From IMG/VR virus record IMGVR_UViG_3300022602_000095, positions 1 through 62,503 of that record: a stretch of 62,503 nucleotides of DNA; one strand, written 5' to 3'. Shown here piece by piece: positions 14,006 to 58,693 of this stretch. Both the position numbers and the translations under genes were made by a program. Below the pieces are notes generated by a model. It was not told the DNA's origin and made no database searches. It saw nothing but the letters and a program-made list of their open reading frames with translations. Source of the stretch: a virus (Duplodnaviria; Caudoviricetes). Position 1 is the stretch's first letter; each line of letters opens with the position of its first letter.

Positions 14006-14040
14006 TTTGATTTATAAAGCATTTATTGTATAATGCTTTG

Positions 14041-14514
14041 ATGGATACTATAACAAAGAATTTGGCTTGGACTGATATTTTCTATGGAGTTACTTCATTA
14101 GAAGAGCTTCTCAAGGGGGATAATTTTATCCCTGATGTTATTATTACTATTGGCCGAGGTGGTATGATCCCAGGTACCCTTCTTGCCTATCGCTTAGATG
14201 TAAAAATTGTACAAAACTTTTCTGTACAAACGTATAATGAAAAAAACGTAAAGTCGGGTTTTATTATCTCTATTCAGGAACCCGGTCATAGTCTAGCCCT
14301 TAAGCATCGTGATGACAAGATCTTAGTCGTTGATGATATTTCCGATGGCGGTTCGACTCTTGAGTATATTAAAAATGAATTAGCAACAAACTACGGACTC
14401 AATAATCTTCGCTTTGCTACCCTCTATACAAAACCTCATACCACGTTTGTACCTGATTATTACGTAACTGAATATCCAAATGATTCTTGGATTATATTTC
14501 CCTGGGAGGTTTAA
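14041..14514 (+). CDS. purine phosphoribosyltransferase (Gpt/Hpt-like)
   Basis: IGRGGMIPG, PRPP-binding loop ILVVDDISDGGSTL, WIIFPWE; start 6 nt after TATAAT. Confidence 0.9.
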   Translation: MDTITKNLAWTDIFYGVTSLEELLKGDNFIPDVIITIGRGGMIPGTLLAYRLDVKIVQNFSVQTYNEKNVKSGFIISIQEPGHSLALKHRDDKILVVDDISDGGSTLEYIKNELATNYGLNNLRFATLYTKPHTTFVPDYYVTEYPNDSWIIFPWEV

Positions 14515-21461: not shown

Positions 21462-21497
21462 ACTTGATTTAATATTATTTACACATATAATCTGAAT

Positions 21498-22316
21498 ATG
21501 CTAATTAAAGTATCGCACGAATCTCCGATTTCTATACTGCAGACATCGACATTGTATAATGATTTTGACTATGCACTGGTACATTTATTTGAATCTCATC
21601 CAAAATACTATCAGTATTTTAAAACAGCGCGTGACGTATATAACCGTGAAGTTCTTCTTGATAACTCAATCTTTGAACTTGGATATGCATTTGATAGTGA
21701 TAAGTTCTTAGCTGCTGCTATCGACCTTAAACCGAACATGTTTATTGTTCCTGATGTACTTGAAAACAGTATGGAGACGGTCGAAAGCTTTCATCGCTGG
21801 TCAAAGGACGAGCTAATACGGCAGGTCAAAGATGAATGTATTACAAAAGCTATTGGTGCTGTACAAGGTAAAACATGGCAGCAATTAATTGATTGTTACA
21901 AGTACATGTCAGATAGCGCTGACATGATTGCGATAAGTTTTGATTTCTCATATTATGATTGTACTGGCGAGGGTAGTACACAGCTTGATCGGTGGTGCTC
22001 TGGTCGTCAGCGCTTTATTACTCAACTTATTGATAAAGGTATTTGGAACTGGGATAAGCCTCACCATCTCCTCGGATGTTCTTTAGCTAAGGAGTTTCGT
22101 TATTATGTAAATCATAATATTTTTAATATTGTAAGTTGTGATACAAGTAACCCGATTGTAGCAGCTCTTCATAATATGAAGTATGATGCTGACTACGGTC
22201 TTCCAACTAAACCGTCTACAAAGCTTGCCGATCTCATTGATCATCAAGTAACAAAAGATGAGATGGAGATTATTGATTATAATACTAAAATGTTTAAGAA
22301 GATCCTATGCAGATAG
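21498..22316 (+). CDS. dpdA: TGT-fold 7-deazaguanine transglycosylase, DpdA3-like
   Basis: LLDNSIFE, IVPDV, GAVQG, HHLLGC and SCDTS motifs of the TGT barrel; adjacent to formyltransferase and queF. Confidence 0.7.
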   Translation: MLIKVSHESPISILQTSTLYNDFDYALVHLFESHPKYYQYFKTARDVYNREVLLDNSIFELGYAFDSDKFLAAAIDLKPNMFIVPDVLENSMETVESFHRWSKDELIRQVKDECITKAIGAVQGKTWQQLIDCYKYMSDSADMIAISFDFSYYDCTGEGSTQLDRWCSGRQRFITQLIDKGIWNWDKPHHLLGCSLAKEFRYYVNHNIFNIVSCDTSNPIVAALHNMKYDADYGLPTKPSTKLADLIDHQVTKDEMEIIDYNTKMFKKILCR

Positions 22317-22912
22317 ACACTAATTGGGTAGCTTTTTTTAGTCGTAGTGGATCTGAAATAAATAATATTATTCATCATATTGGTAAATTACCTGCTGCAA
22401 TAATTACAAATCGTCAGAATGACGATGATTTGAATCCATCGTTAAAAGCATTAAGAGATAATAATAAACTTAATTGGATAGTTCTTCCAAAGAACCCTGA
22501 ACTAAAAGACTATAAGCAAGCACTTAAACAGTATACTGACCCATTGATAACTCTTCATGGCTTTCTAAGAATTATACCAAAAGATATTTGTAAAAAATAT
22601 AAAAATATATACAATCTACACCCTGGACTTATAACTGTATATCCAGAGCTCAAAGGTAAAGACCCGCAAATTAGAGCTATAGAGGCAGACCATAAGATAG
22701 CTGGTGCTGTTATTCATAAGGTTATACCGGCTGTCGATGAGGGTGAGATCGTTACTTCGCATGCCATCAATATACATGGACTTAGCAAAGATGAAGTTTT
22801 TAACAATCTACACTCACTAGGTAGTGTAATGTGGTATCAATTTTTTAAAGATTATGAGCATAGAAGAAATAGTAAAAACAATAGAGACACAGTATCCAGC
22901 GACTTGTACTGA
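22307..22912 (+). CDS. dpdN: PurN-like formyltransferase (DpdN-like preQ1 formyltransferase)
   Basis: FFSRSGS, LHGFLRIIP, NLHPGL, GAVIH.V..VDEGEI. Confidence 0.75.
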   Translation: MQIDTNWVAFFSRSGSEINNIIHHIGKLPAAIITNRQNDDDLNPSLKALRDNNKLNWIVLPKNPELKDYKQALKQYTDPLITLHGFLRIIPKDICKKYKNIYNLHPGLITVYPELKGKDPQIRAIEADHKIAGAVIHKVIPAVDEGEIVTSHAINIHGLSKDEVFNNLHSLGSVMWYQFFKDYEHRRNSKNNRDTVSSDLY

Positions 22913-23201
22913 ATTTAAAAAGATTCAGTACGAACATTATCTTACATTTTGTAAGAAGCAGTTTGATTATGGTCCGGGTAATATCTCTTTAGGATCATCG
23001 CTAAATACGGCAGAAGAGCGCAAGGCATCAATCTCAGCTATTGTTGTACGACTTAATGATAAACTACAACGATTGATTAATCTTGTTCTTAGAAAGAACA
23101 GCTTAGAATCTGCCAATGAGTCTGTATTTGACGCTTTTCTAGATACTGCTGTTTATAGTATTATTGCTGAGATTGTTAATCGTGGCAAGTGGGCGAAGTA
23201 G
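22854..23201 (+). CDS. DUF1599/Nmad1-like nucleotide-modification-associated protein (MazG-like helical fold)
   Basis: KKQFDYG..NI ... VRLNDKLQRL ... ESVFDAFLD.AVY. Confidence 0.7.
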   Translation: MSIEEIVKTIETQYPATCTEFKKIQYEHYLTFCKKQFDYGPGNISLGSSLNTAEERKASISAIVVRLNDKLQRLINLVLRKNSLESANESVFDAFLDTAVYSIIAEIVNRGKWAK

Positions 23202-23216
23202 AGCTATAATTATTAT

Positions 23217-23765
23217 ATGATTATAAGTTTTTCAGGTGTTCAGAGTTCAGGTAAGACTACTCTTTTAAAGGCTTGTAAGGAGATCTATAGCGATCGTTTT
23301 GAATTTGTTGATGAAGTAACAAGATTGGTTAAGCGTGAATTTAATGTACCTATCAACGAGCAAGGTACAGGTCTTACTCAGTGTCTGATTACTAATAAAC
23401 ATATTGAGAATGTATTAAAGCAAAGAGATAAAGATGTTATACTCGATCGTTGTATTCTTGATGGTTTATGCTATACAGGATATCTTCACTTGGAGGGTAG
23501 TGTACCTAAGTGGGTATTTGATTATACACAAAATGTTTTTAAAAGACTTATTAGTCAATATAATATAATTTTTTATACTGATCCTTATGACGTAGCTTTA
23601 ATTGATGATGGTGAAAGAAGTACGGATATTGATTTTAGAAATAGGATGATTGAGACATTTGAACAGGCTATTATTTCATATGGTGATTTATTAGAAAATA
23701 AACTCGTTCGACTAAAAGGAACAGTTGAAGAACGAATGGAAGCTATTAAAATAAAGCTACAATAA
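23217..23765 (+). CDS. P-loop nucleotide kinase (AAA_28/NadR-like)
   Basis: GVQSSGKTT, DRCILD, DDGERS. Confidence 0.8.
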   Translation: MIISFSGVQSSGKTTLLKACKEIYSDRFEFVDEVTRLVKREFNVPINEQGTGLTQCLITNKHIENVLKQRDKDVILDRCILDGLCYTGYLHLEGSVPKWVFDYTQNVFKRLISQYNIIFYTDPYDVALIDDGERSTDIDFRNRMIETFEQAIISYGDLLENKLVRLKGTVEERMEAIKIKLQ

Positions 23766-23767
23766 TT

Positions 23768-24685
23768 ATGACAACAAACTTAACTGATATTGCTTCTAAA
23801 ACTCTTGGTTCCTCAGCATCCTATGCTGTATACACTGAGCAGTTCGATCCATCGCTTCTTAATCCTATGCCTAGAATTCTTGCTCGTGAAGGGTGGGGTA
23901 TTAAGGGTGATGAGTTTGTAGGTTTTGATACGTGGCATTGTCATGAAGCTACATTCCTTCTTAATAATGGTTATCCTGTTGCTGGTACAATTAAATATGT
24001 TTATCCAGCTGATTCAGAGTTTATGGTAGAATCGAAGTCTGCCAAGCTCTATATGAACTCTTTCGATATGTGTAAGATGGGTGAGAACCTCAACGAGGCT
24101 ATTAAGAATTATGAACAGCAAATTACTACCGATCTCACTAATGTAATCGGAAAGCCTGTTAAAGTTAAATTCTTTCCTTCTGAATCAACAGGTATTTTTC
24201 CTCTAAGGGATTATCGAGATTTGTATGTAGAACTTGCTAATAAAGCTTCGCAAATTACAATTACAGATTATTCAGCTCAACAAGATCATTTAGAATTTTA
24301 TAAGATTCATCCTGAAGATAATAATCTAGTTAGTGATAAGTGGTTTACCAATGCCCTTCGCTCACGCTGCCGTCATACAAAGCAAAAAGATACAGGTGCT
24401 GCTTATGTTCATATTATTACAAAAAATGGTATGCGGGTAAAGCCTGAATCGCTCTTTAAGCAGATTGTAGCACTTCGTGAGGTTAATGAATTCCATGAAT
24501 TTTGTGCTGAGAAGCTTTTTACAAGTATTATGGCTCACGATGAGGTAGCAGACTGTGTAGTAACTCTTCTTTACTCACGACGTGGCTCACTCGATATTAA
24601 TCCCACACGTGCGAGTAGTAAGCATCTCCTACCTCTTATTCTCGGTGACGTAAATCACTATACAGAGAAGGCAATGGGACAGTAG
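23768..24685 (+). CDS. queF: 7-cyano-7-deazaguanine (preQ0) reductase, bimodular type
   Basis: QueF motif ESKSAKLYMNSF, LRSRC..T.Q.D, FHEFC, YSRRGSLDINP. Confidence 0.9.
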   Translation: MTTNLTDIASKTLGSSASYAVYTEQFDPSLLNPMPRILAREGWGIKGDEFVGFDTWHCHEATFLLNNGYPVAGTIKYVYPADSEFMVESKSAKLYMNSFDMCKMGENLNEAIKNYEQQITTDLTNVIGKPVKVKFFPSESTGIFPLRDYRDLYVELANKASQITITDYSAQQDHLEFYKIHPEDNNLVSDKWFTNALRSRCRHTKQKDTGAAYVHIITKNGMRVKPESLFKQIVALREVNEFHEFCAEKLFTSIMAHDEVADCVVTLLYSRRGSLDINPTRASSKHLLPLILGDVNHYTEKAMGQ

Positions 24686-24712
24686 TTTAGCTTGTTAGTT
24701 GTTGTTACAAAG

Positions 24713-24741
24713 AAAAAGCCCTAGCTAAGCTAGGGCTTTTT
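24713..24741. terminator. bidirectional intrinsic terminator
   Basis: AAAAAGCCCTAGC-TAA-GCTAGGGCTTTTT between convergent genes. Confidence 0.9.
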
Positions 24742-24764
24742 TAATTTAGTTTATTATCTTTTTA

Positions 24765-25907: not shown

Positions 25908-27434
25908 TTAGAAGTAAACAGACTGAGTAGCAGGCGTAAATGCTGTACTGAGACCCTGAAGAATAATGACGTGGTAATAAAGATTCGCACCGAAGATGTT
26001 ATCTACAACGCCATAACGGGTTAATAGACCAACACGTGGTGAGAAATCGTTAGGACCGATGGTACGCTGAACCATTACAGGGATGTAAGGGCAGTAGATG
26101 ATACCAGTGTCATAGAACTCAGGCCCCTTGTAACCAAGGAGTGCGTAGTCAAGGCGTGTTGTACGAGTGCTATTGGCGGGGAAACCACCTTTACCACCGA
26201 AGTTACCTCCGGCGTTAGCCTCGAACTGTGCCTCTGTACGTGTGTCACGATAAACATTAAAACGACCGGCCAATGAGCCTACCTTTGCAACACCAACGGG
26301 CTGTGTATTTACTGAACCCTGTACTGGTACCCACTGGAATTCAGGGAGCATTTCTAGGATTGCGCAAACGCGAGGTGTACCAACTACGAAGTTGGCGGAA
26401 CCACGGCGGTTACGTACAGCGATACGATTAGCCTCAATGATGAGTCTCTGATAGAAGTCACGATTACGCTCAACGAGCCAACGACCATCGGCTGAAGCAG
26501 GATTCCAGATTGAGAAGCCTACGCCGTAACCGGCGTTAAGGGCTGTCTGAATCATACGGATGATCATTTCACGGTCGATTTCGGCCTGAAGCTCATATGA
26601 CATAGCATTTGTGAGCTCAGTATCGATATCGATACCGTTCATGTTCTTAAGATCCTGTTCAAGCTCAACGGACCAGCGAGCTGCAAGACGGCGTGTGCCG
26701 GCTTCAACTGCTGTCTTCTCAAAGCTGACGACGATCTGTGGGATGTTACTGCTTAACTCAAACTGGCTGAGTAATGCTGCAACGCCCTGATCTTCAACAG
26801 GAATGACGAAGGATGAACCTGCGCCTAAACCGGAGAGAGACTGTGAGCTCGCACCTGTGAAGGCTGTGTTGAGGTACTGATAACCTAATTCTGGGTTAGC
26901 TGAGAGGGCATTGTTTGCATTACCAGCATACTGTTGTGTGCTGGAAGCATCAAGGGAACCTGTCTGATAACCAAGTGAGGTTGGTTCGTACTTATAACGG
27001 AGTGCAAAAGCAAGACCGACTGGGCCACTCATTGGCTGAACACCAACAATCTCGTTTGTTATGAGTTCAGGGAATGTACGTCTGATCATCGGAATGAGGA
27101 TCTTAGGGAGACGAGCGTCACCGGAAGCATAAGCTGAATCGTTCTGTGATGGGAACTGATTGCCATATGAACCTGCGCCACCTGTTTCACCACCGAAAAC
27201 GCCACTACCTGCAACGCCGTAACCGCCAGCTGTGCCGCCGGATTGGTTTGAGGCCTCAAAGCACCACTTCTCTTGGTTCTCAAGGAGGATAGCGGTGTTT
27301 AAGCGTGTGTGGTCGTCTTCAATTGCGCGAACGTTGTTGGATGTGTAATCCAATACTGGACTCCACTTCTCAAGCAATGTACGCGCACTTCTCTCATCGA
27401 TGTAAGACTGTGAAGGACGGATTGATTTTGACAT
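25908..27434 (-). CDS. gp23: T4-like major capsid protein
   Basis: LLEKWSPVL, LLENQ, GVQPMSGPVGLAFALR, ELEQDLKNMNGID, EIDRE, GYKG..YD.G..YCPY. Confidence 0.97.
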   Translation of the reverse strand: MSKSIRPSQSYIDERSARTLLEKWSPVLDYTSNNVRAIEDDHTRLNTAILLENQEKWCFEASNQSGGTAGGYGVAGSGVFGGETGGAGSYGNQFPSQNDSAYASGDARLPKILIPMIRRTFPELITNEIVGVQPMSGPVGLAFALRYKYEPTSLGYQTGSLDASSTQQYAGNANNALSANPELGYQYLNTAFTGASSQSLSGLGAGSSFVIPVEDQGVAALLSQFELSSNIPQIVVSFEKTAVEAGTRRLAARWSVELEQDLKNMNGIDIDTELTNAMSYELQAEIDREMIIRMIQTALNAGYGVGFSIWNPASADGRWLVERNRDFYQRLIIEANRIAVRNRRGSANFVVGTPRVCAILEMLPEFQWVPVQGSVNTQPVGVAKVGSLAGRFNVYRDTRTEAQFEANAGGNFGGKGGFPANSTRTTRLDYALLGYKGPEFYDTGIIYCPYIPVMVQRTIGPNDFSPRVGLLTRYGVVDNIFGANLYYHVIILQGLSTAFTPATQSVYF

Positions 27435-27530
27435 AGTTTTAAAAAATTTCTTTCTTTTTGTCGACCTTATATTCTATTCAGGGGAATACCCTCAACAACA
27501 AATCTTCTATTCTTTAGAAGAAAATAAAAC

Positions 27531-28409
27531 TTAGTACTTATGAAGCTCGTTCAAGTAAAGATTGAATGCACGATCCTCACTTGCTGGAGTCTCAATAGAC
27601 TCCTCGATTACTGGGCGATCAACAGATGTAGTAACTGTTTCTTCCCTAGCTTCGGTAACAAGATTGTTGAGCCGCTCTTCTTCGGATTTGTCAAAAAGAC
27701 CAAGGGTATAATCAAAGTTTTCTGCGATAAATTTTGCGGACTTTGAACCCAACATCTTTCTCATGTAGGTCTTTCTGTCCTCATCAAGAGAGGAAATATT
27801 CTTCTCGAGAATCAAACTCGCATTGACTGTGTTTAGTTGCTCGGTCAATGTTGCAACCCGCTTATTAGCGGCTTCAAGCTGCTTGGCAGCTTCATCAATT
27901 CTTGTTTTACCGTCAACGACGGCATCACGAATACTCTCTTGGGCGAGAGCCATATCAACGGAAAGCATGTTGCGCATTTCATTAAGAACTGCTGCTGCAC
28001 GCTTATTGTTGACGGCCTCTTGAATTTCAGCTGCTGGGAGCTTCTCTTCAAGATAAAGTTCAAGGTAATTACTTACCTGGTCAATCATTTGATTTTTAAA
28101 ATCTGCAGCTTCTGTTGTAAGAGCTGTTTCATACTTCTCTACGATCTGCTTAAGCTTCTTTACACGATCAGCATCAAGAGCTGCAACAACTTTGTTGAGC
28201 TTGGCAACGTGATCAGCATCAATAGCTTCGATAAGAGTTTCAAGCTTACTAGCATAATCCTCATCCTGTTCATTGAGAGCTTTTTCAACGTGAAGTTTTA
28301 CTTTAGCGTCGACAGAAGCTTCATAGGCTGTTTCAATTTCCTTAAGAACGTCTTCAGTAAGAATGTCCTTAGTTGCTGCCTTGAGGAGTTCGGAGATATT
28401 ATTTTGCAT
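27531..28409 (-). CDS. gp22: prohead core scaffold protein
   Basis: Coiled-coil, V.NYLE motif, located between gp21 and gp23. Confidence 0.85.
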   Translation of the reverse strand: MQNNISELLKAATKDILTEDVLKEIETAYEASVDAKVKLHVEKALNEQDEDYASKLETLIEAIDADHVAKLNKVVAALDADRVKKLKQIVEKYETALTTEAADFKNQMIDQVSNYLELYLEEKLPAAEIQEAVNNKRAAAVLNEMRNMLSVDMALAQESIRDAVVDGKTRIDEAAKQLEAANKRVATLTEQLNTVNASLILEKNISSLDEDRKTYMRKMLGSKSAKFIAENFDYTLGLFDKSEEERLNNLVTEAREETVTTSVDRPVIEESIETPASEDRAFNLYLNELHKY

Positions 28410-46145: not shown

Positions 46146-46921
46146 ATATAGATTGATGTTTGATTAGGGTTAAAATAAAGTGAAGCTGTAGCCATGTTAG
46201 ATATTGGGTGTATAAAGTATTGGCCCTTTGAAAGCATATAAACTTCTAAATAGTTGTTCAAAGCATCTTCCTCTGTGCCGGGTAAAAAATGTGGTTCTTC
46301 ATCTGTTACAAAATTAGTGCGCCTTGTTTGAGGATTATATATACAACGTTTATACCGTTCAACAAATTTATTTAAATCATATATATTATCTACAGCTAAG
46401 CAAAGATAGGTTTCCTCATCGAAATTTTTATCAATATTATTGAAATAATCCTCTAATGAGGGTAAAGTGCCATTTGTTTGCTCACACCTTAATCGTTCAT
46501 TTCTTTTTAAAATACTAATAATTTTTTTGCCTGCAAGAGATTTAAAAGTATTGTTTAATATATCAATTTTTTGTTTTAATTTTTCGTTTGGTGAAAAATA
46601 CGATAATGTTTTGTTGAGGTTAATTCGCCACTCGTTATCATTACTATTGTAGTAATTACTAACATTATTGCCTGTAAATTCTTGTTGTGTATATTCTTCT
46701 AGTGTTATAATTTTTGTAATTGACTTTTTATTGTCATATACTTGAAAGAGTTTGCCAAACACCTCGCCGCAATTATATGCGAAAGCTCCATATGGCTGAC
46801 CGTATAAATCCCAGACTATTCTACATACATTGGGATTATCTTTTAAAAAGGTAGTTACCTTATTAAAATTTGAAAAAAAGCCACCTTCGTGATGCTTGAC
46901 TACGAGTTGAATATTATCCAT
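46142..46921 (-). CDS. O-fucosyltransferase/NodZ-like GT-B protein
   Basis: GGFFSNF start, LAVD, E...LSK...FI...SNM. Confidence 0.6.
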   Translation of the reverse strand: MDNIQLVVKHHEGGFFSNFNKVTTFLKDNPNVCRIVWDLYGQPYGAFAYNCGEVFGKLFQVYDNKKSITKIITLEEYTQQEFTGNNVSNYYNSNDNEWRINLNKTLSYFSPNEKLKQKIDILNNTFKSLAGKKIISILKRNERLRCEQTNGTLPSLEDYFNNIDKNFDEETYLCLAVDNIYDLNKFVERYKRCIYNPQTRRTNFVTDEEPHFLPGTEEDALNNYLEVYMLSKGQYFIHPISNMATASLYFNPNQTSIYI

Positions 46922-47759
46922 TTGCTTTTAATTTAAGTTGTTTAACAATATCAATAACCTTTTCCTTACTTACATATGGTGGTTGATTTGGATAATGACC
47001 GTGTTTTTTAAGATAAAGCTCACGACCGCCGTAGACATTTTTTTGCCATTGCTCAGATTGGTTCGCAATAGATGAATTATCAATAGCACCTGGCGCTTCT
47101 GTTAACAGCTCATGACTATTAGCCAAATCTGCAAACCACCAAAAAGGAGGGTGATAACCTGCTTTAATAATACAATATGTATGATCCACGTGTTCCCAGG
47201 CATTATAAAATTGTTCATCAATATACCCGATTTTATTAATAATTTCTCTTGTAAAGAATGAAAACATGGCAACTGTATGTTCATACAGAGCTATTTTACA
47301 GGTCTTATAATCCAGAATCATCTTCGGGTTTGGTTCAGTATCCTGATCTAATAAATGACGATTATGTAAATCAAAGTCTTGGATCTTTTGCTTACGATTG
47401 AAAGGTGAACCTGGGCCGTAATTAAAATGGTGTATACCAGAAACTTTATATGCTTCTATATATTGTTTAAAAACGGATTGATCTTTGATAATCATATCAT
47501 CCTCAATAATAAAGAAATAATCACAATCTTTAGCAACTAACTCTTTAAGAGCTATATTTTTTGCTTTACCAACACCAGTTCTGCCAGATGTTTTAATAAT
47601 ATTACCATCAAATACTGTTTTCGCAGTATCTTCATTACCATCATCAACGACGACAAGTGTATTGATACCTGTTTCTTCTATATTAACAGAAGCAATCAAA
47701 CTTTTTAAATACTCCGGCCTATCACATGTAACTATTCCTACTCCTATTTTTTCAGTCAT
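46914..47759 (-). CDS. GT2-family glycosyltransferase
   Basis: IVTCDRPEYL, VVVDDG, KAKN, IEDD, IGYIDEQF, WEHVD. Confidence 0.9.
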   Translation of the reverse strand: MTEKIGVGIVTCDRPEYLKSLIASVNIEETGINTLVVVDDGNEDTAKTVFDGNIIKTSGRTGVGKAKNIALKELVAKDCDYFFIIEDDMIIKDQSVFKQYIEAYKVSGIHHFNYGPGSPFNRKQKIQDFDLHNRHLLDQDTEPNPKMILDYKTCKIALYEHTVAMFSFFTREIINKIGYIDEQFYNAWEHVDHTYCIIKAGYHPPFWWFADLANSHELLTEAPGAIDNSSIANQSEQWQKNVYGGRELYLKKHGHYPNQPPYVSKEKVIDIVKQLKLKANG

Positions 47760-47795: not shown

Positions 47796-48686
47796 ATGGC
47801 AACAAATCCTACCAATAGTACTACAGTAAGTATTTTAAACTTACCACAAGCTCAGCTTGCAACAGCTACTGATAACCTTGTATTACAAACAACTAATGGT
47901 ACGCAGATCATTTCTTTTCAAAACTTTAATGTTGTGAAGACAGATATTAATGGTAATGCTACAGTTGTGGGAGACCTTTCCGGTAATAACGCAACGTTTA
48001 TTGGTGGTATTAATACTGTAACATTAACAGCTTCGCAATACTACACAACAGGTGGACAGAAAGGATACAACCCACCACTGCCTGGTATTAACTACTACGA
48101 TAGTTTTACAATTGCTAATGGTTTAATTGTTAGCGCTATACCAACAAGTGTTGATTATATCAACAATCCTATTTATACGACTCTCAATACACAAATTACA
48201 GGTCTTTCATCAACTTTTAATTCCCAATTAACATCAATATCTGCAACACTGAATACGCAGCTAACGGCTATGTCCAGCTACGTTACAACACAGCTTCAAG
48301 CAGCAACAGCTAGCTATGGTACACAGCTCAATACACTTACAAGTTATTCAACGGGTATATACGATGCTACTGTCAATGCATCTATACAGCCTGCAGCTAA
48401 TGGCTCCTTAAGTGGTGTTATTGTCCCATTTACAAATTTCTTTAATGGGTTGCCGTTAGGTATAAATCAAATTATACCATCAGACTTTATTTTATCACCT
48501 GCTGCAACTACTGTAGCACAAGCTACTGCCTACTATGCTGCAGCACCATTTATTGCGCAGGGTAGTATTTCTTCTATTAACGGTGGTACAGGGTTACAAG
48601 TAACAGTCAGTGCAGCTAATATTGTTTCAGCACAGTTACCAATTAACGTAAGACTACTTGTATCGTACAACGCGGCACCGCATTAA
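47796..48686 (+). CDS. Ser/Thr/Asn-rich virion fibre-like protein
   Basis: TATAAATA late promoter; I.NLP...N-terminal motif; central coiled-coil LNTQ(I/L)T repeats. Confidence 0.55.
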   Translation: MATNPTNSTTVSILNLPQAQLATATDNLVLQTTNGTQIISFQNFNVVKTDINGNATVVGDLSGNNATFIGGINTVTLTASQYYTTGGQKGYNPPLPGINYYDSFTIANGLIVSAIPTSVDYINNPIYTTLNTQITGLSSTFNSQLTSISATLNTQLTAMSSYVTTQLQAATASYGTQLNTLTSYSTGIYDATVNASIQPAANGSLSGVIVPFTNFFNGLPLGINQIIPSDFILSPAATTVAQATAYYAAAPFIAQGSISSINGGTGLQVTVSAANIVSAQLPINVRLLVSYNAAPH

Positions 48687-49444
48687 TCTACGGTTTCATC
48701 ACCTAGGGTTTTAGCACGTACAATATTTGTACGGAATTTCTCTTCCTGAAGTTCAGCAGACTGAACTTCCTTTTGATCACCCATAAGCTTAGCAATAAGA
48801 TCGAGATTCTTTGAATCTAAAACACTTGTTTCCTCTACAACCGCTTTACCTTCTGCATCAATATAAAATTCAACCATAGCAATACGTTCTTCTCTTGTAC
48901 CAAATACTTCAATAATAGGTGGCCGATCTTCATCTGGAAAAAATGGTGAGGCACCAGTACGAGTATAACTATATTCAATAGCTTTGAATATATTGTCAAT
49001 CTCTTTAATATAGTCTTCCTCTATATTACGTGTATCACGTGCTTCTTTTGGAATAGGTGAGAATTTAGTAATAGGTGTAAAGAATATGATATCTAATGAA
49101 TGCATCGTTTCTTTAACGAGTGGTATACATTTCTGTATAAACTCATCACTAATAATCTTGTTATCCTTTGCATTAGCCCATAGAGAATATACAAGATTAT
49201 CTAAAGCACAGCGATCGAAAAGTACAAAATCATCTTTAGATGTTTTTTGAATATCATCTAAAAGACAATTTAGAATCTTCCATTGCCCTTCCTCGGTAAC
49301 GTCCTTATTAAGAGGTATATTTTCTGTTTTAATTGCAGTACGATACGATTCTTCAGACCGTTTGTACATTGGCCATTTTTTAATAATATCATCAATTAAT
49401 GTACTCTTACCCTGACAAGCTGAACCGGAGATTGCAATACGCAT
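48683..49444 (-). CDS. P-loop nucleotide kinase (AAA_28-like), second copy
   Basis: GSACQGKST, DRCALD. Confidence 0.8.
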   Translation of the reverse strand: MRIAISGSACQGKSTLIDDIIKKWPMYKRSEESYRTAIKTENIPLNKDVTEEGQWKILNCLLDDIQKTSKDDFVLFDRCALDNLVYSLWANAKDNKIISDEFIQKCIPLVKETMHSLDIIFFTPITKFSPIPKEARDTRNIEEDYIKEIDNIFKAIEYSYTRTGASPFFPDEDRPPIIEVFGTREERIAMVEFYIDAEGKAVVEETSVLDSKNLDLIAKLMGDQKEVQSAELQEEKFRTNIVRAKTLGDETVD

Positions 49445-49474: not shown

Positions 49475-50251
49475 TCAAACTCGTAATGCCTTATCCCAAA
49501 TTACCAGCTGTAGACGTGGGCTAAAATTAACGCAGAGTGCTTTTGCATATTCAGCAACAGTTGCAGCTTTTTCTGTATGTTCGGCGCGGGAACCGCAGCA
49601 AGGCATAAACCAGATGCGGTTAAGTGGTATATTGATACCTTCTTTATCGTCAACATATTTGCGCCAAATTTCTTCAATATCCTCAGAGCGGTTAATAACA
49701 AACTTAAATCCAGATTTATATTTTACATGCCAGCGCAAAACTTCAGGTACATATGTTTTATCCTCAGGATCACCGTTAGAAATAAGTTTTGGTGATGTAG
49801 TAAAAGTTGCACCATATATACCATTAACGTGGTCCTTCGGATGTAACCAGCGAGCGTCTGGTGTGATTGTAGCATTAGTCTCAAAATCAATACGTGGTAT
49901 GAAATTATACCGCTCAGTAAATTTTCTAATAAAGTTTAACAAAGGTGTCTGTCGGAGCATTGGTTCACCGCCTGTTAATTTAAGTATAGCACCGTACCGT
50001 AAGTGTTCAATAAAACCGTGTTGCTCATAAAAAGCAAACATCTCATCAAATGTATATTTATTTTTCTTAGACCATGAAATATATGAATCGCACCCGTGAG
50101 GTGAATCCGTGGATGAGAAGCCTTTGCACGTAAGGTTGCAGCCAAATAATCTCAAAAAAACTGAGGGTTTACCTACATGTTCACCTTCCCCTTCTACTGT
50201 GAGAAATCCTGGTCCATCATCACTAATAAGTAAATAATCTTGTTCATCCAT
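49475..50251 (-). CDS. queE: 7-carboxy-7-deazaguanine synthase (radical SAM)
   Basis: T.EGEG..G.PSVFLRL.GCNL.C, TGGEP, ETN, SPK, SPRL. Confidence 0.9.
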   Translation of the reverse strand: MDEQDYLLISDDGPGFLTVEGEGEHVGKPSVFLRLFGCNLTCKGFSSTDSPHGCDSYISWSKKNKYTFDEMFAFYEQHGFIEHLRYGAILKLTGGEPMLRQTPLLNFIRKFTERYNFIPRIDFETNATITPDARWLHPKDHVNGIYGATFTTSPKLISNGDPEDKTYVPEVLRWHVKYKSGFKFVINRSEDIEEIWRKYVDDKEGINIPLNRIWFMPCCGSRAEHTEKAATVAEYAKALCVNFSPRLQLVIWDKALRV

Positions 50252-50252
50252 A

Positions 50253-50891
50253 TTACTGTATTATAATAGAATAAAAATCGCTTGCAAGCATTTCCTTCGA
50301 TGGATTCGAATTATACTGCATGCGATAGACCTTCCATCCAGCTTGTTTTAATATTTTATCTCTTTTTTTATCAGGTGTTCTTATTGTTTTTTGATTTAAT
50401 TTATGCCAATACATTCCATCATATTCAATGTTTATTTTTAATTCAGGTATAGCTATATCAAGGTATATTTTATGATCATCTTTAATTTTAAATTCATAAT
50501 CTAATATAGCGGTCGGAAATTTATGTAATACTATTTCATATAATAATCTTTGTGGTTTACTAATACGTTTAGCAAATTTTCTAATATTATTTTTCTTCAA
50601 CCATTTACTTCGCTTTTGTTTCATTTCTGTTGCTTTACTTCCATATAATTGTTCATATGTTTTACCGCGTGAGTGACCTGCAACAGATTTAAATCCTTTA
50701 GCTCTAGAGTGATTATTGTTTTGCTTTAACTTCGATAATATATTTGACTCATTAAATATACGAACTATCTTCAATACGGTAGGCCAACTTAATTTTATTT
50801 TTTTAGCTATTTGTGTAGTCGAAAATCCGTGCACTATTAATGTACAAATAATTTTATAATCATTTTTATATTTTTTAGTATAATCTACCAT
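50253..50891 (-). CDS. DUF559/Vsr-like homing endonuclease with N-terminal HTH
   Basis: GKTYEQLYG, LDIAIP..KINIEYDG.YWH, D.KRD..L..AGWKV; own TATAAATA promoter. Confidence 0.8.
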   Translation of the reverse strand: MVDYTKKYKNDYKIICTLIVHGFSTTQIAKKIKLSWPTVLKIVRIFNESNILSKLKQNNNHSRAKGFKSVAGHSRGKTYEQLYGSKATEMKQKRSKWLKKNNIRKFAKRISKPQRLLYEIVLHKFPTAILDYEFKIKDDHKIYLDIAIPELKINIEYDGMYWHKLNQKTIRTPDKKRDKILKQAGWKVYRMQYNSNPSKEMLASDFYSIIIQ

Positions 50892-50995
50892 ATATGCTTA
50901 TTTATAATTCGACCCTGTATTGTATAGAATAAATTATAATTTAATGTTTAATTGTCTTACATAAATCAAGGCTCAAATTGATTAAATAATTGTAG

Positions 50996-51823
50996 ATGAA
51001 AAAGAAGAAGGCTACGAAAGTAGCCCCACCATCGGGTGCCATCTCGGTTGAAAAACCAGCTGACACATCACTATACGTAGCCCAAAGAGAAAAAATTGAT
51101 TTCACTCTTAATGTTCGAGAGCTTCCTTGGACAGATAAGCAAAAAGAAATTATAAATTTATTTCTTGATAAGAATACAAAGTTAATGATTCTCAAGGGTC
51201 CAGCTGGTACATCAAAGACTATTCTTTCAATGTATCTTGGCTTACAACTTCTTAATATGAAGAAAGTATCAGATATTGTACTTGTACGTTCAGCCGTTGA
51301 AAGCTCTGATTCAAAACTTGGCTATCTTCCTGGCGATATTAATGAAAAGGTTAATGTATATATGACACCTTTCAATGAGAAGTTTTCTGAGCTTATCGTT
51401 GAGCCACAAATTCACCGTTTACATAAGGATAACCGCATTACAATCTGTCCGATTAATTTTGCACGAGGTCTTCACTTTGCTGTTAAATTCGTATGTTGTG
51501 ATGAGAGTCAAAATTTGACAATTCGTGAATTACAAACTTTATTTACACGTATGGGTGAATTTAGTAAAATGATTATATGCGGTGATCCGGATCAGTCAGA
51601 CTTACCTTACGGTAAGTCAGGCTTTAATACTGTATATAAGGCTTTCGATAACGACGATGCTAAATTACATGGTGTACATTGTGTAGAGCTAACTGAGGAT
51701 CATATCGTTCGTTCTGAACTCTGCCGTTATGTAACGCATATATTTAAAGGCATTATGCCTGTTACAAATACAAAGGAAACTAACGGTAAAGATTACAGAC
51801 CGTCAGACTCTAAATTTCATTAA
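50996..51823 (+). CDS. phoH: PhoH-family ATPase
   Basis: GPAGTSKT, LGYLPGD, DESQN, TRMGE, GDPDQSD, IVRS. Confidence 0.95.
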   Translation: MKKKKATKVAPPSGAISVEKPADTSLYVAQREKIDFTLNVRELPWTDKQKEIINLFLDKNTKLMILKGPAGTSKTILSMYLGLQLLNMKKVSDIVLVRSAVESSDSKLGYLPGDINEKVNVYMTPFNEKFSELIVEPQIHRLHKDNRITICPINFARGLHFAVKFVCCDESQNLTIRELQTLFTRMGEFSKMIICGDPDQSDLPYGKSGFNTVYKAFDNDDAKLHGVHCVELTEDHIVRSELCRYVTHIFKGIMPVTNTKETNGKDYRPSDSKFH

Positions 51824-52214
51824 GAGATTTTAGCTCTTCAAGTGCTCGTAATACAGCATCGTTAGCTTGATGTATATCATCACTTGATTGATCTTTAATT
51901 ATAGGTGTAAAGTTAGTATTCACTTTACTATCTGGTATAAGGTTATGTTCAGCAGCTACTTTAGATAGTGTTGCTTGGAGCTGATGTATAAGAGGATCAG
52001 GCTCTCTTTCAATGAGAGAGCTTGGATTTAAATTTGTAGATAATCTTGTTACAGCAACACTACCAACGGGTTTAACCTGGGTATTATAAATGTCACCAAG
52101 CTTTTGATTGTTATTAACAATTGAATCAATAAATTCAGGAGCAAATTTACCTTGTATTTTAAAATGATCCGATATTTCACCGCCATACTGCTGTTGCAGT
52201 GTTTCAGCGTTCAT
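51810..52214 (-). CDS. hypothetical protein
   Basis: ORF overlapping the queD stop. Confidence 0.6.
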   Translation of the reverse strand: MNAETLQQQYGGEISDHFKIQGKFAPEFIDSIVNNNQKLGDIYNTQVKPVGSVAVTRLSTNLNPSSLIEREPDPLIHQLQATLSKVAAEHNLIPDSKVNTNFTPIIKDQSSDDIHQANDAVLRALEELKSLNEI

Positions 52215-52897
52215 CGTCCCCAGCTAGTACCGCCAAAGAAATTTGAATAACCTGATGTTACAGGGTTACGTAATGGTACCGGGCCATTTTTTGGCTTGTC
52301 AGGTGATGACGGTGCTGGAGGAGTTTCAATAGGATATAAAATTTGTTCAGTAGCTTGATGTTGTGGTTCAGTATTGACTGCATCAATAGGTGTAGCTTCT
52401 ATAGGTGTTGTATATGTCGATTGAATCGGTGTAGTATAACTTGTTGAATATGTAACCGGACGCTGTTCGCCGTAAATAGCAGAATTTGCTTCATGTTCAA
52501 ATACTTCAACTTTTTCAACCCAACACCGATCACCATAATTATTTTTAAGCCATGTTGTAGCTGCTTTAAAGCAAAATTCAGCAGTCTTTTCAATACCTAC
52601 AGAATCCATAATGCGAAGGTCACATCCTCCCATATTGTGTAAGTGTTGAAATATTTCAAGCAATGGATCATCACTCGCAACACATAATGTGTGATCAAAT
52701 TGATGTTGTAGTTCAGCCTTTAATGTTTTAAGACTAGCGAAGTCAACAACCCAGTTTTTTTCATCAAGTGATGATGCTGAAAAATAAAATTTAGCTAATA
52801 ATTGATACCCGTGAATTTTTGAACAATGTGAAGTAGCTCTCCATTGTCTAAAGGCACAAGATCCAAGTTCGATAAGTTTAGTACTCTGATAACTCAT
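52211..52897 (-). CDS. queD: 6-carboxy-5,6,7,8-tetrahydropterin synthase with Pro/Thr-rich C-terminal extension
   Basis: SHCSKIHGY, WVVDF, FDH, E...NSA. Confidence 0.9.
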   Translation of the reverse strand: MSYQSTKLIELGSCAFRQWRATSHCSKIHGYQLLAKFYFSASSLDEKNWVVDFASLKTLKAELQHQFDHTLCVASDDPLLEIFQHLHNMGGCDLRIMDSVGIEKTAEFCFKAATTWLKNNYGDRCWVEKVEVFEHEANSAIYGEQRPVTYSTSYTTPIQSTYTTPIEATPIDAVNTEPQHQATEQILYPIETPPAPSSPDKPKNGPVPLRNPVTSGYSNFFGGTSWGR

Positions 52898-54489: not shown

Positions 54490-54537
54490 CGCTATTATTT
54501 ATGTTGAACTAGATTAAGCTGCTAGTATAATATGGTT

Positions 54538-55188
54538 ATGTCTGAATATACAAAAGTTGTTAAGCTTAAAGAAGCTAACGGTAATCATCCACGTACAGAA
54601 GATGAAAAGAGGGCTATTATTGAAAAGGCTGCAGCAGCATACGAAGTTTACCTCGATGCTCTTGGATTCGAGTGGCGTAATGATCCTAATAGCTCTGGTA
54701 CCCCACTTAGAGTAGCTAAAGCATTTGTTAATGATCTAGCTGCTGGATGTTATGAAAATCCTCCTAAGATTACATCGTTTCCAAGTAACGGGTATGATGG
54801 TATGGTATTTCAAGGAGGTATTCCTGTCAAATCAATGTGCAGTCATCACCATTTAGCGTTTACAGGGGTTGCGCACGTTGCATATATCCCATCAAAAGAA
54901 GGTCGAGTAATTGGTCTTTCAAAGCTTAATCGTATTGTAGAGCATTATGCTCGTAGACCTCAGATTCAAGAGTCGATGACAGTACAGATTCATACAGCTA
55001 TTAATGATGTATGCGAATTAAATGACGGTGTGGCAGTGGTAGTAAGCGCTACCCATACCTGCGCGTGTTTACGTGGAGTAAAGCATGATGGTTGCGAGAT
55101 GAAGACATCTAAGCTTTCCGGTGACTTCCTTGATGATGCAGCAACAAGGGCAGAGTTTTATAACTTTGTTGCTGATATGAAAAGCTAA
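54538..55188 (+). CDS. folE: GTP cyclohydrolase I
   Basis: TP.RVAKA, SMCSHH, GLSKLNR, RRPQIQE, HTCAC.RG; start 6 nt after TATAAT. Confidence 0.95.
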   Translation: MSEYTKVVKLKEANGNHPRTEDEKRAIIEKAAAAYEVYLDALGFEWRNDPNSSGTPLRVAKAFVNDLAAGCYENPPKITSFPSNGYDGMVFQGGIPVKSMCSHHHLAFTGVAHVAYIPSKEGRVIGLSKLNRIVEHYARRPQIQESMTVQIHTAINDVCELNDGVAVVVSATHTCACLRGVKHDGCEMKTSKLSGDFLDDAATRAEFYNFVADMKS

Positions 55189-57577: not shown

Positions 57578-58693
57578 TTATGATCCAAATTTTTCTGCAC
57601 CTGCCTCACCACCACCAACACCATATGGTGCACCTACAAAAATTGTTTTATTATTTGTTATGGGATCTGGGTATCCTGAATAATCATCATCTCCTAATAA
57701 TGCATTAGTACTTGTCATGCCTTCAAGTTCTTCATCATCTTCTCTTTCTTGAGCTCCAAATTTCGAGCTCATGAAATGCGGACTATTTACCTTAAACATT
57801 AGATCGCCAGCCTTAATAACATATCCCTCAATATCACCAAGAAGACCTTCAGTCTTAAGAAGATTATTAACAATCTTTGTATACATCTGTTTTTGTATAG
57901 GTAAAAGCTTTTCATTAATCTTAGATTCAAGTTCTTTTCTACGCTGAACAAGCTTGTTGCGACCAGGTCCACCAATAGCAATTTGATCTTTTAACTCCGT
58001 TAGTTCCTGTTCTATCTTAGTTAAATTACTAAGAGCCTTCTGTGCATTTAGTAATTCAGGTCTAAGATCAATTGAATGAAAAACATTAACGTTAGGTAAA
58101 ATAAATTTTACCTCCTTATCATTAATAGATGTTAGTTTCTTGATGATCGAAGCGGCATTAGTACCCTCTTCTCCTTGTACATTAATAACAATAAATGTCG
58201 ACCAAGTACCTAATCTATCCTTATTATATTGTGCAACAACAAAACTTACTTTTCCGGAATTAGGATCTGCTTCGAGTGCATTAGGTGAATAGAGCCATTC
58301 AAGTTGAACAGTAACATTATGCTTACCGATAATTGGACTAATTAAATGCTTAATGCGTTCAAAGCTATTCATAAACGCCTGGCGAGCTGGTGGATATTTA
58401 ATAGCAGTTATAAAATCTTCAGGTTTATATACTTTACCTGAATAGCTTGAGCGTACAAAAAATCCATTCTCGTCATTGCCAACCTTAAGAGCCATACCGT
58501 CAACTTTCTCTGTTACAGTTGAATTCTCAGGTGTAATCATTCCCTTGTTTTGCTGTAAATAGCTAACAAAGCGTTTAAAGTTATCTATACTCATTGAGTA
58601 TAACTCCGGCTTATTTTGGGAATAAAGATGTTGGATACCTACTCTATCACCCTCTTTTGGTGCTTCTGTTAAAAATTGTTTAAATGTAATCAT
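57578..58693 (-). CDS. ATP-dependent ligase-like nucleotidyltransferase
   Basis: I.HL, TEKVDG (KxDG), EGYVI..FK motifs; MITFKQFLTE start. Confidence 0.65.
   Translation of the reverse strand: MITFKQFLTEAPKEGDRVGIQHLYSQNKPELYSMSIDNFKRFVSYLQQNKGMITPENSTVTEKVDGMALKVGNDENGFFVRSSYSGKVYKPEDFITAIKYPPARQAFMNSFERIKHLISPIIGKHNVTVQLEWLYSPNALEADPNSGKVSFVVAQYNKDRLGTWSTFIVINVQGEEGTNAASIIKKLTSINDKEVKFILPNVNVFHSIDLRPELLNAQKALSNLTKIEQELTELKDQIAIGGPGRNKLVQRRKELESKINEKLLPIQKQMYTKIVNNLLKTEGLLGDIEGYVIKAGDLMFKVNSPHFMSSKFGAQEREDDEELEGMTSTNALLGDDDYSGYPDPITNNKTIFVGAPYGVGGGEAGAEKFGS

Follow-up and report, generated by a model that had tools for sequence, protein, structure and literature searches.

Organization of the locus

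We analyzed a 62,503-nucleotide (nt) fragment of a virus record (Caudoviricetes; IMGVR_UViG_3300022602_000095), referred to below as the window, for which CheckV estimates a completeness of 29%. The window contains a cassette of five genes that encode, in this order, DpdA3, DpdN, a DUF1599/Nmad1 protein, a P-loop kinase and QueF. The locus is a further uncultured example of the published DpdA3 system for 2'-deoxy-7-(formylamino)methyl-7-deazaguanosine (fdPreQ1).

The five open reading frames (ORFs) lie on the + strand and span positions 21498-24685. The first, dpdA3 (21498-22316), encodes a minimal guanine transglycosylase of 272 amino acids (aa) with the tRNA-guanine transglycosylase (TGT) fold, assigned by homology, by its structural model and by a triad of aspartates. 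It is followed by dpdN (22307-22912), which encodes a PurN-like formyltransferase of 201 aa, recognized by its Formyl_trans_N domain and by an orthologue in Flavobacterium phage immuto. The third gene (22854-23201) encodes a protein of 115 aa placed in DUF1599/Nmad1 by transitive homology. The fourth (23217-23765) encodes a thymidylate-kinase-like P-loop kinase of 182 aa (AAA_28; phrog_2107). The last, queF (23768-24685), encodes a divergent bimodular preQ0 reductase of 305 aa with the domains QueF_N and QueF. Each pair of ORFs overlaps or is separated by no more than 15 nt: ORF1 and ORF2 overlap by 10 nt and ORF2 and ORF3 by 59 nt, whereas gaps of 15 nt and 2 nt, respectively, separate the next two pairs. 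A preliminary description of this DNA had listed five tightly linked genes here, all of which were recovered at the same positions. The identities it gave to four of them (DpdA3, PurN-like DpdN, kinase and QueF) are borne out by domain matches and by identity to proteins of immuto and of phage CP220. A megablast search of the cassette against 50,697 phage records gave no match.

The cassette is flanked on one side by a divergent 955-aa tail/baseplate-like gene and on the other by convergent capsid-region genes. A hairpin scan found a GC-rich hairpin of 14 pairs followed by a run of T at 24712-24742, between the convergent genes. This is likely a two-way terminator and agrees with the terminator described earlier at the end of the cassette. 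The sigma70-like promoter described at its head fared less well. The hexamer pair TTGATT-16-TATAAT does exist on the + strand at 21464-21491, in the 36-nt divergent intergenic region. It matches at 10 of 12 positions, and its -10 element ends 6 nt upstream of the ATG. However, such sites are no commoner than chance (17 in the region against 16.0 +/- 4.4 in shuffles). The promoter is doubtful, and the pattern was not counted as evidence.

DpdA3 has a reduced TGT barrel

Searches of Pfam and NCBIfam with ORF1 gave no match. The protein matches phrog_19058 (E 1.4e-54), and by tblastn it is 44% identical both to the annotated DpdA of immuto (E 1e-58) and to CP220 gp056 (E 2e-50), over 94-95% of the length. 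The name DpdA3 for these proteins is that of Cui et al. 2023 (PMC10516641). An AlphaFold2 model was built with an alignment of 68 diverse relatives and has a pLDDT of 96.4. Its top Foldseek matches are all tRNA-guanine transglycosylases (E 1.7e-8). Superposition on the TGT of Z. mobilis (VIA) covers 234 residues with a Z score of 18.2 and an rmsd of 3.0 Å, at 12% sequence identity. A phmmer search of DpdA3 against the sequences of the Protein Data Bank (PDB) gave nothing meaningful.

Three aspartates, D55, D86 and D215, are invariant in 68 of 68 DpdA3 sequences. The sole PDB match of the family profile is the bacterial DpdA 7UI4, and it is weak (E 0.27). In this match, HHLLG and D215-T-S-x-P of DpdA3 align with the segment of 7UI4 that holds Leu236 and the nucleophile Asp256, when the tag offset is allowed for. 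Judged by motif and spacing, D55 and D86 would be the equivalents of the other two catalytic aspartates, which serve as general acid and in base recognition. DpdA3 thus shares with 7UI4 and TGT the TIM barrel, three invariant aspartates and the HLLG and D-x-S/T-x-P motifs.

DpdA3 differs from these enzymes in what follows the nucleophile. In bacterial DpdA, the insertion at this place (Ins8) has 128 residues and a Zn site of the form CxCx2Cx22H, lies along the RNA or DNA helix in TGT and DpdA, and carries the essential Phe265 (Gedara et al. 2023, PMC10164549). The DpdA3 of the window ends 57 residues beyond its nucleophile Asp; across 68 DpdA3 sequences the median is 57 and the range 54-75, and none of the 68 contains the Zn-site motif C.C..C. 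The DpdA of phage 9g has 102 residues after the corresponding Asp, by our own motif assignment. After strand 8, the model has just two short helices and the helix that closes the barrel. DpdA3 lacks most of the nucleic-acid-binding Ins8, which fits a small substrate but is no proof of one.

The family is a large and widespread phage group, with 1344 protein clusters at 50% identity. It includes natural DpdA3-DpdN fusion proteins (P0127 and P0183), which mean that the two steps are coupled and nothing more. Other long forms of DpdA3 carry a C-terminal domain that is GNAT-like by eye (P0136), an N-terminal extension of 317 aa (P0152), a NUMOD3 motif that is probably an endonuclease insertion (P0166) or a C-terminal DUF3310 (P0269).

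DpdN, QueF and the kinases

ORF2 matches Formyl_trans_N (PF00551; E 4.4e-14, 53.1 bits against a cut-off of 26.1) and is 43% identical to immuto gp204 (YP_010114479) over 178 aa (E 7e-44). Its best PDB matches are glycinamide ribonucleotide (GAR) transformylases (E 1.6e-8), with which its NLHPGL and VDEG motifs align. At least 95% of 58 homologues retain N103, H105 and D144, which we take to be the Asn-His-Asp catalytic positions of PurN. PurN proper (GAR transformylase) was rejected as an assignment, with 52.3 bits against a cut-off of 150.1 for TIGR00639. As for the DpdN of immuto, the predicted function is formylation of the aminomethyl group of preQ1.

Both domains of ORF5 score above their cut-offs (QueF_N, PF14819, E 1.3e-23, 83.9 bits; QueF, PF14489, E 1.4e-8, 35.2 bits). 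The segment E88-S-K-S-x-K-L-Y95 and C201, presumably the QueF motif and the catalytic cysteine, are conserved in 95% or more of the 82 homologues compared. With 178.8 bits, ORF5 lies below the equivalog cut-off of TIGR03138 (293.45) and is therefore a divergent member.

ORF4 matches AAA_28 (E 3.2e-12, 47.4 bits against a cut-off of 27) and phrog_2107, "thymidylate kinase" (E 4.4e-25). It is 37% identical to CP220 gp057 and 33% to immuto gp203, and there is a weak match to the thymidylate kinase of Aquifex that includes the DR motif. The conserved residues G7, G12, K13, T15, R36, D77, R78, R134, R141 and R173 include the Walker A motif (G7-x4-G12-K13-T), the DR motif (D77-R78) and the LID arginines (R134 and R141). 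Thymidylate kinase proper was rejected (PF02223, 21.1 against 27; TIGR00041, 20.2 against 83.25). Relatives of this kinase are found in 25 of the 50,697 phage records, 21 of them Campylobacter or immuto phages and four Streptomyces phages. A domain match identifies a second AAA_28 paralogue of 253 aa in the window (48683-49444, - strand), with a C-terminal extension of approximately 100 aa; it adjoins queE. Campylobacter phages also have two places that match the ORF4 kinase.

The kinase recurs beside DpdA3

To describe the neighborhood of DpdA3, we pooled the window, 39 + 79 IMG/VR loci and six isolate phages, giving 125 loci in which at least 13 contigs appear twice. The cassette is kept across the 39 loci of the first scan, for which the DpdA3 of the window was the query. 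Because the second scan was confined to the best 80 of 544 confirmed relatives, closer kin are overrepresented in the sample. Genes were called crudely, and all 1935 proteins were clustered without reference to function. A DpdA3 gene was called in 123 of the 125 loci, and single linkage at 70% sorts these genes into 20 groups.

The kinase is the commonest neighbor family within three genes of DpdA3 (12 of the 20 groups by BLAST cluster). With hidden Markov models (HMMs), a kinase is found within +/-5 genes of DpdA3 in 16 groups, or 17 when a Walker-A protein of Bacillus phage BSTP12 is counted; the corresponding numbers are 10 for DpdN, 10 for QueF and two for Nmad1. The 1935 genes contain 114 kinase matches in all, 113 of them in loci with a called DpdA3; for 112 of these 113, the position is either one gene upstream of DpdA3 or between one and five genes downstream. 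Independent Pfam matches place a P-loop kinase directly beside DpdA3, or a DpdA3-like protein, in CP220, CC_R7 (AAA_28), Chryseobacterium phage MA9V-3 (AAA_18) and phiST. The phiST protein, CGPG_00066 (L053:10382-10861), scores as an AAA_18 P-loop kinase (E 9.4e-7) and is described by Cui et al. 2023 (PMC10516641) as of unknown function and without homologues in other such phages. With a kinase beside DpdA3 in CP220, phiST and immuto, all three phages reported as fully substituted have the pair, despite their different bases (dADG, dDG and fdPreQ1, respectively).

As a control, we examined 17 loci of DpdA1 of the phage 9g type, an enzyme that acts on DNA and gives partial modification. Among their 278 genes, a single marginal kinase match (E 0.001) was found, and none encodes a small protein that has Walker A at its N-terminus. 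The kinase and the varying deoxynucleoside triphosphate (dNTP) pyrophosphatases described below belong to the DpdA3 module.

A subset of 32 loci within L090-L132 (for example, L122:6001-6780 and downstream) has the order dpdA3-kinase-queF, with a DpdA3 that is 56-62% identical to that of the window; dpdN and Nmad1 were not found within five genes. In another DpdA3 clade (L036-L039 and L043; L039:8933-13677), which may be of a different chemistry, neither a kinase nor DpdN or QueF adjoins DpdA3. The neighbors there are a sulfotransferase, a T4 endoV-like pyrimidine-dimer glycosylase, a 2-oxoglutarate-Fe(II) oxygenase and a phosphoribosyltransferase (PRTase). DpdA3 and DpdA3-like modules often abut a DNA polymerase gene (immuto module, L001:9001-15143). 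The order is queC-dpdA3like-kinase-polymerase in CC_R7 (L051:4363-9465) and P-loop-dpdA3like-polymerase I in BSTP12 (L049:3336-6692). The 9g DpdA1 is also near its polymerase, and this proximity does not discriminate between routes to the modified DNA.

dNTP hydrolases and the DUF1599/Nmad1 protein

In three groups of sister cassettes (L092/L093, L030/L110 and L108/L109), a protein of PF18909, "dATP/dGTP diphosphohydrolase, N-terminal", is encoded between dpdN and the kinase gene (E 3.5e-19 and 3.6e-22). It holds the place of ORF3 in the window. The DUF5664 protein of Arthrobacter phage Wayne, of the same family as PF18909, converts dATP, dUTP and dGTP to deoxynucleoside monophosphates (dNMPs), and a DUF5664-DUF550 fusion has dGTP/dATP pyrophosphohydrolase activity, as reported by Poubanne et al. 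2026 (PMC12884076). In phiST, a MazG gene lies three genes from DpdA3, and in immuto a gene for PRA-PH, of the MazG clan, lies two genes upstream. One cassette has an inorganic pyrophosphatase between kinase and queF (L031:12230-12742; E 5.4e-49). Another encodes a cupin protein between dpdA3 and dpdN (L100:6804-7253).

The match of ORF3 itself to DUF1599 is weak (E 0.044, 14.6 bits against a cut-off of 25). PF07659 is present in homologues that are 50-53% identical to it, and DUF1599 clusters make up 26 of 30 Atlas matches; by transitive homology, ORF3 would be a member of DUF1599/Nmad1. E89, D93 and D97 are invariant in its family. The preliminary description had called this protein MazG-like, for which no support was obtained: Foldseek, VIA and hhalign give no link to the MazG clan. 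Against the PDB, no Foldseek match reached E <=0.001; the best had E 1.6, and 2p06 and 2gta appeared weakly, at a probability of approximately 0.5. A wide VIA search returned generic helical hairpins (best Z 7.3), and the family profile had 0 matches to PDB sequences. The hhalign comparisons with the PRA-PH of immuto, the MazG of phiST and the PF18909 proteins were not significant (E 0.71, 0.36 and 0.086, respectively). The comparison with the C-terminus of the long DpdA3 P0209 gave E 5e-4 at a probability of 31%, a bare hint of a DpdA3-Nmad1 fusion, and that with P0269 gave nothing. A complex prediction for DpdA3 with the 115-aa ORF3 had a score of 0.00, which is no verdict on binding in either direction. 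In L006, L008, L010, L011 and other loci, as in the window, the last 50-60 nt or so of dpdN are shared with the beginning of the Nmad1 gene, and the two genes merely abut in L005 and L016.

No MazG, PRA-PH, HD or PF18909 protein was found in the window or in three relatives, one of them 91% complete; for PF18909 the search was weak, with no match in any control genome. This leaves DUF1599 as the sole remaining candidate in the clade for the hydrolysis of dGTP, if such a step is needed. The argument is one of position, by which DUF1599 may be a dGTP-hydrolyzing protein.

Precursor genes elsewhere in the window

The earlier description had also placed folE, queD and queE elsewhere in the window, and all three were recovered. 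These are folE (GTP cyclohydrolase I; 54532-55188, + strand, E 8e-49), queD (PTPS family; 52211-52897, - strand, E 2e-17) and a divergent queE (7-carboxy-7-deazaguanine synthase; 49475-50251, - strand), whose product is 23% identical to the QueE of immuto. A Pfam search of this product for Radical_SAM gave no match. It matches Fer4_12 (E 3.6e-5), and its five NCBIfam matches, the best with E 2e-9, are QueE models without exception but stay below their cut-offs. As described earlier, queC was not found in the window. It is present in three of three long contigs of close relatives examined, in one of them (G001) approximately 50 kb from dpdA3. The absence from the window is most simply explained by the end of the fragment.

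A 6-oxopurine PRTase of the xanthine/guanine type is encoded at 14026-14514 (+ strand; Pribosyltran, E 2e-19). Its best NCBIfam match is a xanthine PRTase (E 1.2e-23, below cut-off). Homologues occur near dpdA3 in most loci and also within the queuosine cluster of immuto.

Near the precursor genes (50253-51823, 57578-58693 and 46914-47759), the window encodes an REase-like/DUF559 protein, PhoH, an RNA-ligase-like protein and a family 2 glycosyltransferase. A long run of minus-strand ORFs of 250-300 aa occupies approximately 36.8-47.7 kb. The GC content is 0.47 at 26001-28000, where a 508-aa capsid-like gene lies, compared with 0.31-0.40 elsewhere.

Comparison with characterized systems

The DNA of immuto has lost its dG peak, and comparison with a synthetic standard identified its fdPreQ1 (Cui et al. 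2023, PMC10516641). The same gene order, dpdA3-dpdN-kinase-queF, is found in immuto and in the window, with identities of 44% for DpdA3, 43% for DpdN, 33% for the kinase and 37.5% for QueF. Both phages have FolE, QueD, QueE and the PRTase. The link of DpdA3 and DpdN to fdPreQ1 in a Flavobacterium phage, on which the preliminary description relied, is thus sound (Cui et al. 2023). The two loci differ in that the window has the DUF1599/Nmad1 gene between dpdN and the kinase gene, whereas immuto has PRA-PH two genes upstream instead. The cassette of the window also lies among structural genes, with the precursor genes approximately 25-33 kb away, whereas in immuto they are adjacent.

Complete replacement of G is reported for CP220 (dADG) and phiST (dDG) as well as for immuto (Cui et al. 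2023, PMC10516641). Like the window, CP220 and phiST have a DpdA3 or DpdA3-like gene with a P-loop kinase directly beside it. An NTP phosphohydrolase-type gene lies within three genes in both (HD-AAA_33 in CP220, MazG in phiST). Unlike the window, they have no DpdN or QueF; their pathways stop earlier and give other 7-deazaguanines. A tblastn search with the window protein at E <=5 misses the DpdA3 of phiST, which is too distant.

Phage T4 rewrites its nucleotide pool with a dCTPase, a dCMP hydroxymethylase and a dNMP kinase. This set and that of the S-2L/PurZ phages (MazZ, DatZ, DUF5664 and DmtZ) have the same list of parts as the one considered here, namely a hydrolase from dNTP to dNMP, an enzyme that alters the base on the dNMP, and a kinase. 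Some DpdA3 cassettes share PF18909 (DUF5664) with the PurZ-type phages. In the 2-aminoadenine phages, DmtZ sets a precedent: it exchanges the base of a dNMP, in a phage that is fully substituted, according to the same report on DUF5664 (PMC12884076). Two differences stand out. The proposed base-exchange enzyme DpdA3 has a TGT fold, compared with an NDT or thymidylate-synthase-like fold in the pool-rewriting systems. In the window itself, the hydrolase slot holds DUF1599, a candidate by position.

How the base may enter DNA

We consider it very probable that fdPreQ1, or a close derivative, is present in the virion DNA of this phage, because the gene order is that of immuto, the cassette is kept in 39 loci and DpdA3-DpdN fusions exist. 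We read the cassette as the module by which a large uncultured phage modifies its DNA. Our preferred reading, with about an even chance of being right, is that the base is placed by a nucleotide-level (pre-replicative) route. In such a route, FolE, QueD and QueE of the window would make preQ1 together with QueC, encoded elsewhere in the genome, and QueF. DpdN would formylate the aminomethyl group of preQ1, before or after the exchange. dGTP would be hydrolyzed to dGMP, by PF18909, MazG or PRA-PH proteins in the sister cassettes and here perhaps by DUF1599. DpdA3, as a stripped-down TGT barrel, would then swap the guanine on a deoxynucleotide for preQ1 or formyl-preQ1, by a double displacement as in TGT. 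The adjacent kinase would phosphorylate the modified product, and the second kinase or the host Ndk would complete the triphosphate. Incorporation by the phage polymerase would replace G by fdPreQ1, and the PRTase would salvage the freed guanine toward GMP and GTP, the starting material of FolE. We infer the substrates in this scheme, the order of formylation and exchange and the part given to DUF1599 from the analysis described above.

The preliminary description had also proposed a pre-replicative route. This has gained indirect support from the DpdA3-kinase pair, from the pyrophosphatases in sister cassettes and from the truncated fold, and it is not established. In its specific form, DpdA3 would be a transglycosylase of a deoxynucleotide (dGMP, dG or dGTP), fed by a dGTP pyrophosphatase and followed by a dedicated kinase, with complete replacement of G through the dNTP pool. 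We hold this form tentatively, as somewhat short of an even chance.

A number of points weigh against the nucleotide-level route. We know of no enzyme of the TGT/DpdA superfamily that acts on a mononucleotide; all those characterized use polynucleotides. The substrates of DpdA3 and of the kinase are predictions from sequence. dNMP kinases are common phage equipment. The kinase HMM was built from the neighbors themselves, so the weight of the association lies in its recurrence across groups and in the independent Pfam calls. In three of the 20 DpdA3 groups (L036-L039 with L043; L117; L112), no kinase is found within +/-5 genes, and the DpdA1 control represents a single lineage. The CxCxxC motif is also missing in 9g-type DpdA1 (0 of 15). 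Since these enzymes act on DNA without it, loss of the Zn site fails to separate DNA-acting from other enzymes. As a discriminator, the motif was rejected, for it splits DpdA3 only from TGT and bacterial DpdA. The isoelectric point (pI) and net charge were rejected as a proxy for nucleic acid binding, as the median pI is 5.56 for DpdA3 and 5.66 for 9g-type DpdA1, which is no difference. The comparisons described above gave no link of DUF1599 to nucleoside triphosphate pyrophosphatases. CP220 gp055 is an HD + AAA_33 protein, an architecture that we take to be of the HD-Pnk end-healing type, and so need not be a dGTPase.

Several of these points favor the route in print. A modified-dGTP route was once proposed for Campylobacter phages (Crippen et al. 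2019, as cited by Hutinet et al. 2019, PMC6884629). Cui et al. 2023 (PMC10516641) proposed a post-replicative route for DpdA3, and a 2025 paper repeats this view as textbook knowledge. By this account, DpdA3 is a highly efficient DNA-guanine transglycosylase that acts on newly replicated DNA, and DpdN formylates either the free base or preQ1 already in DNA. We regard it as quite possible, although on balance doubtful. The same holds for its corollary that the kinase, the pyrophosphatases and the PRTase travel with the module as a general supply of nucleotides or of GTP for FolE. The TGT fold and the catalytic Asp triad are conserved in DpdA3, and bacterial DpdA (PMC10164549) and phage DpdA1 and DpdA2 (PMC6884629) are described as acting on DNA, in the case of the 9g enzyme without CxCxxC. 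The three lineages without a nearby kinase are in keeping with it, and one GTP is used per G replaced, so genes for purine supply would be useful anyway. Yet exchange on DNA does not specifically account for a kinase that accompanies DpdA3 in 16-17 of 20 lineages and is essentially absent from DpdA1 loci. It also leaves the dATP/dGTP diphosphohydrolase and the inorganic pyrophosphatase inside the cassettes unexplained, and DpdA3 is without most of the helix-binding Ins8. Among fully substituted phages it would, to our knowledge, be unusual for all of the base to be exchanged on finished DNA, which we count against this route. Attempts to obtain DpdA3 activity in the E. coli DNA-modification model of Cui et al. 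2023 (PMC10516641) failed. The main text of that paper, its supplementary gene tables aside, does not contain the word "kinase". In the literature searched, no paper links DpdA3 or 7-deazaguanine to a kinase, to dGMP or to a dNTP route, which agrees with the earlier view that this step is unresolved in print.

Two further explanations differ in where the base or the enzymes would act. The PRTase could join a 7-deazaguanine base to phosphoribosyl pyrophosphate. The kinase would then raise the product to the diphosphate, ribonucleotide reductase would convert this to the deoxy form, and the polymerase would insert it into DNA; DpdA3 would serve elsewhere, for example in proofreading residual G in DNA or on tRNA. 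Many loci do combine dpdA3 with a PRTase of the xanthine/guanine type, which immuto has within its queuosine cluster, and in L034 the large subunit of ribonucleotide reductase is encoded approximately 3.5 kb from dpdA3. We nevertheless think this improbable. It is DpdA3, not the PRTase, that is present in every phage known to carry these bases (Cui et al. 2023), and in the clade of the window the PRTase is several kb from dpdA3. Salvage of guanine accounts for the PRTase equally well, and its acceptance of 7-substituted 7-deazaguanines is purely hypothetical. The genes could also boost or alter queuosine-type modification of host or phage tRNA and leave the phage DNA unmodified. QueF, FolE, QueD and QueE are enzymes of tRNA queuosine, and the idea was raised for phages without a recognized DpdA (PMC6884629). 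Here it has very little probability: orthologous cassettes occur in phages with proven DNA substitution, DpdA3 is without the tRNA-binding insertion, and the formyltransferase and the kinase have no place in queuosine synthesis.

Implications

The value of this locus lies in the family-wide comparison, which ties the kinase and the dNTP pyrophosphatases to the DpdA3 module. The question of a nucleotide-level route is directly testable with three purified proteins and commercial substrates. The dpdN-less group of 32 loci predicts plain dPreQ1 genomes, possibly fully substituted, and an acyltransferase in place of DpdN, of the kind suggested by P0136, could mean other N-acyl preQ1 bases. If the nucleotide route is true, it would explain why complete replacement is found only in DpdA3 phages, and it may explain the inactivity of DpdA3 in the E. 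coli DNA-modification test. It would be a new reaction for the TGT superfamily and would allow 7-substituted 7-deaza-dGTPs, which have uses as reagents, to be made with enzymes. If DpdA3 is a deoxynucleotide transglycosylase, DUF1599/Nmad1 would be a new component for the clearing of dGTP or the handling of nucleotides in these phages.

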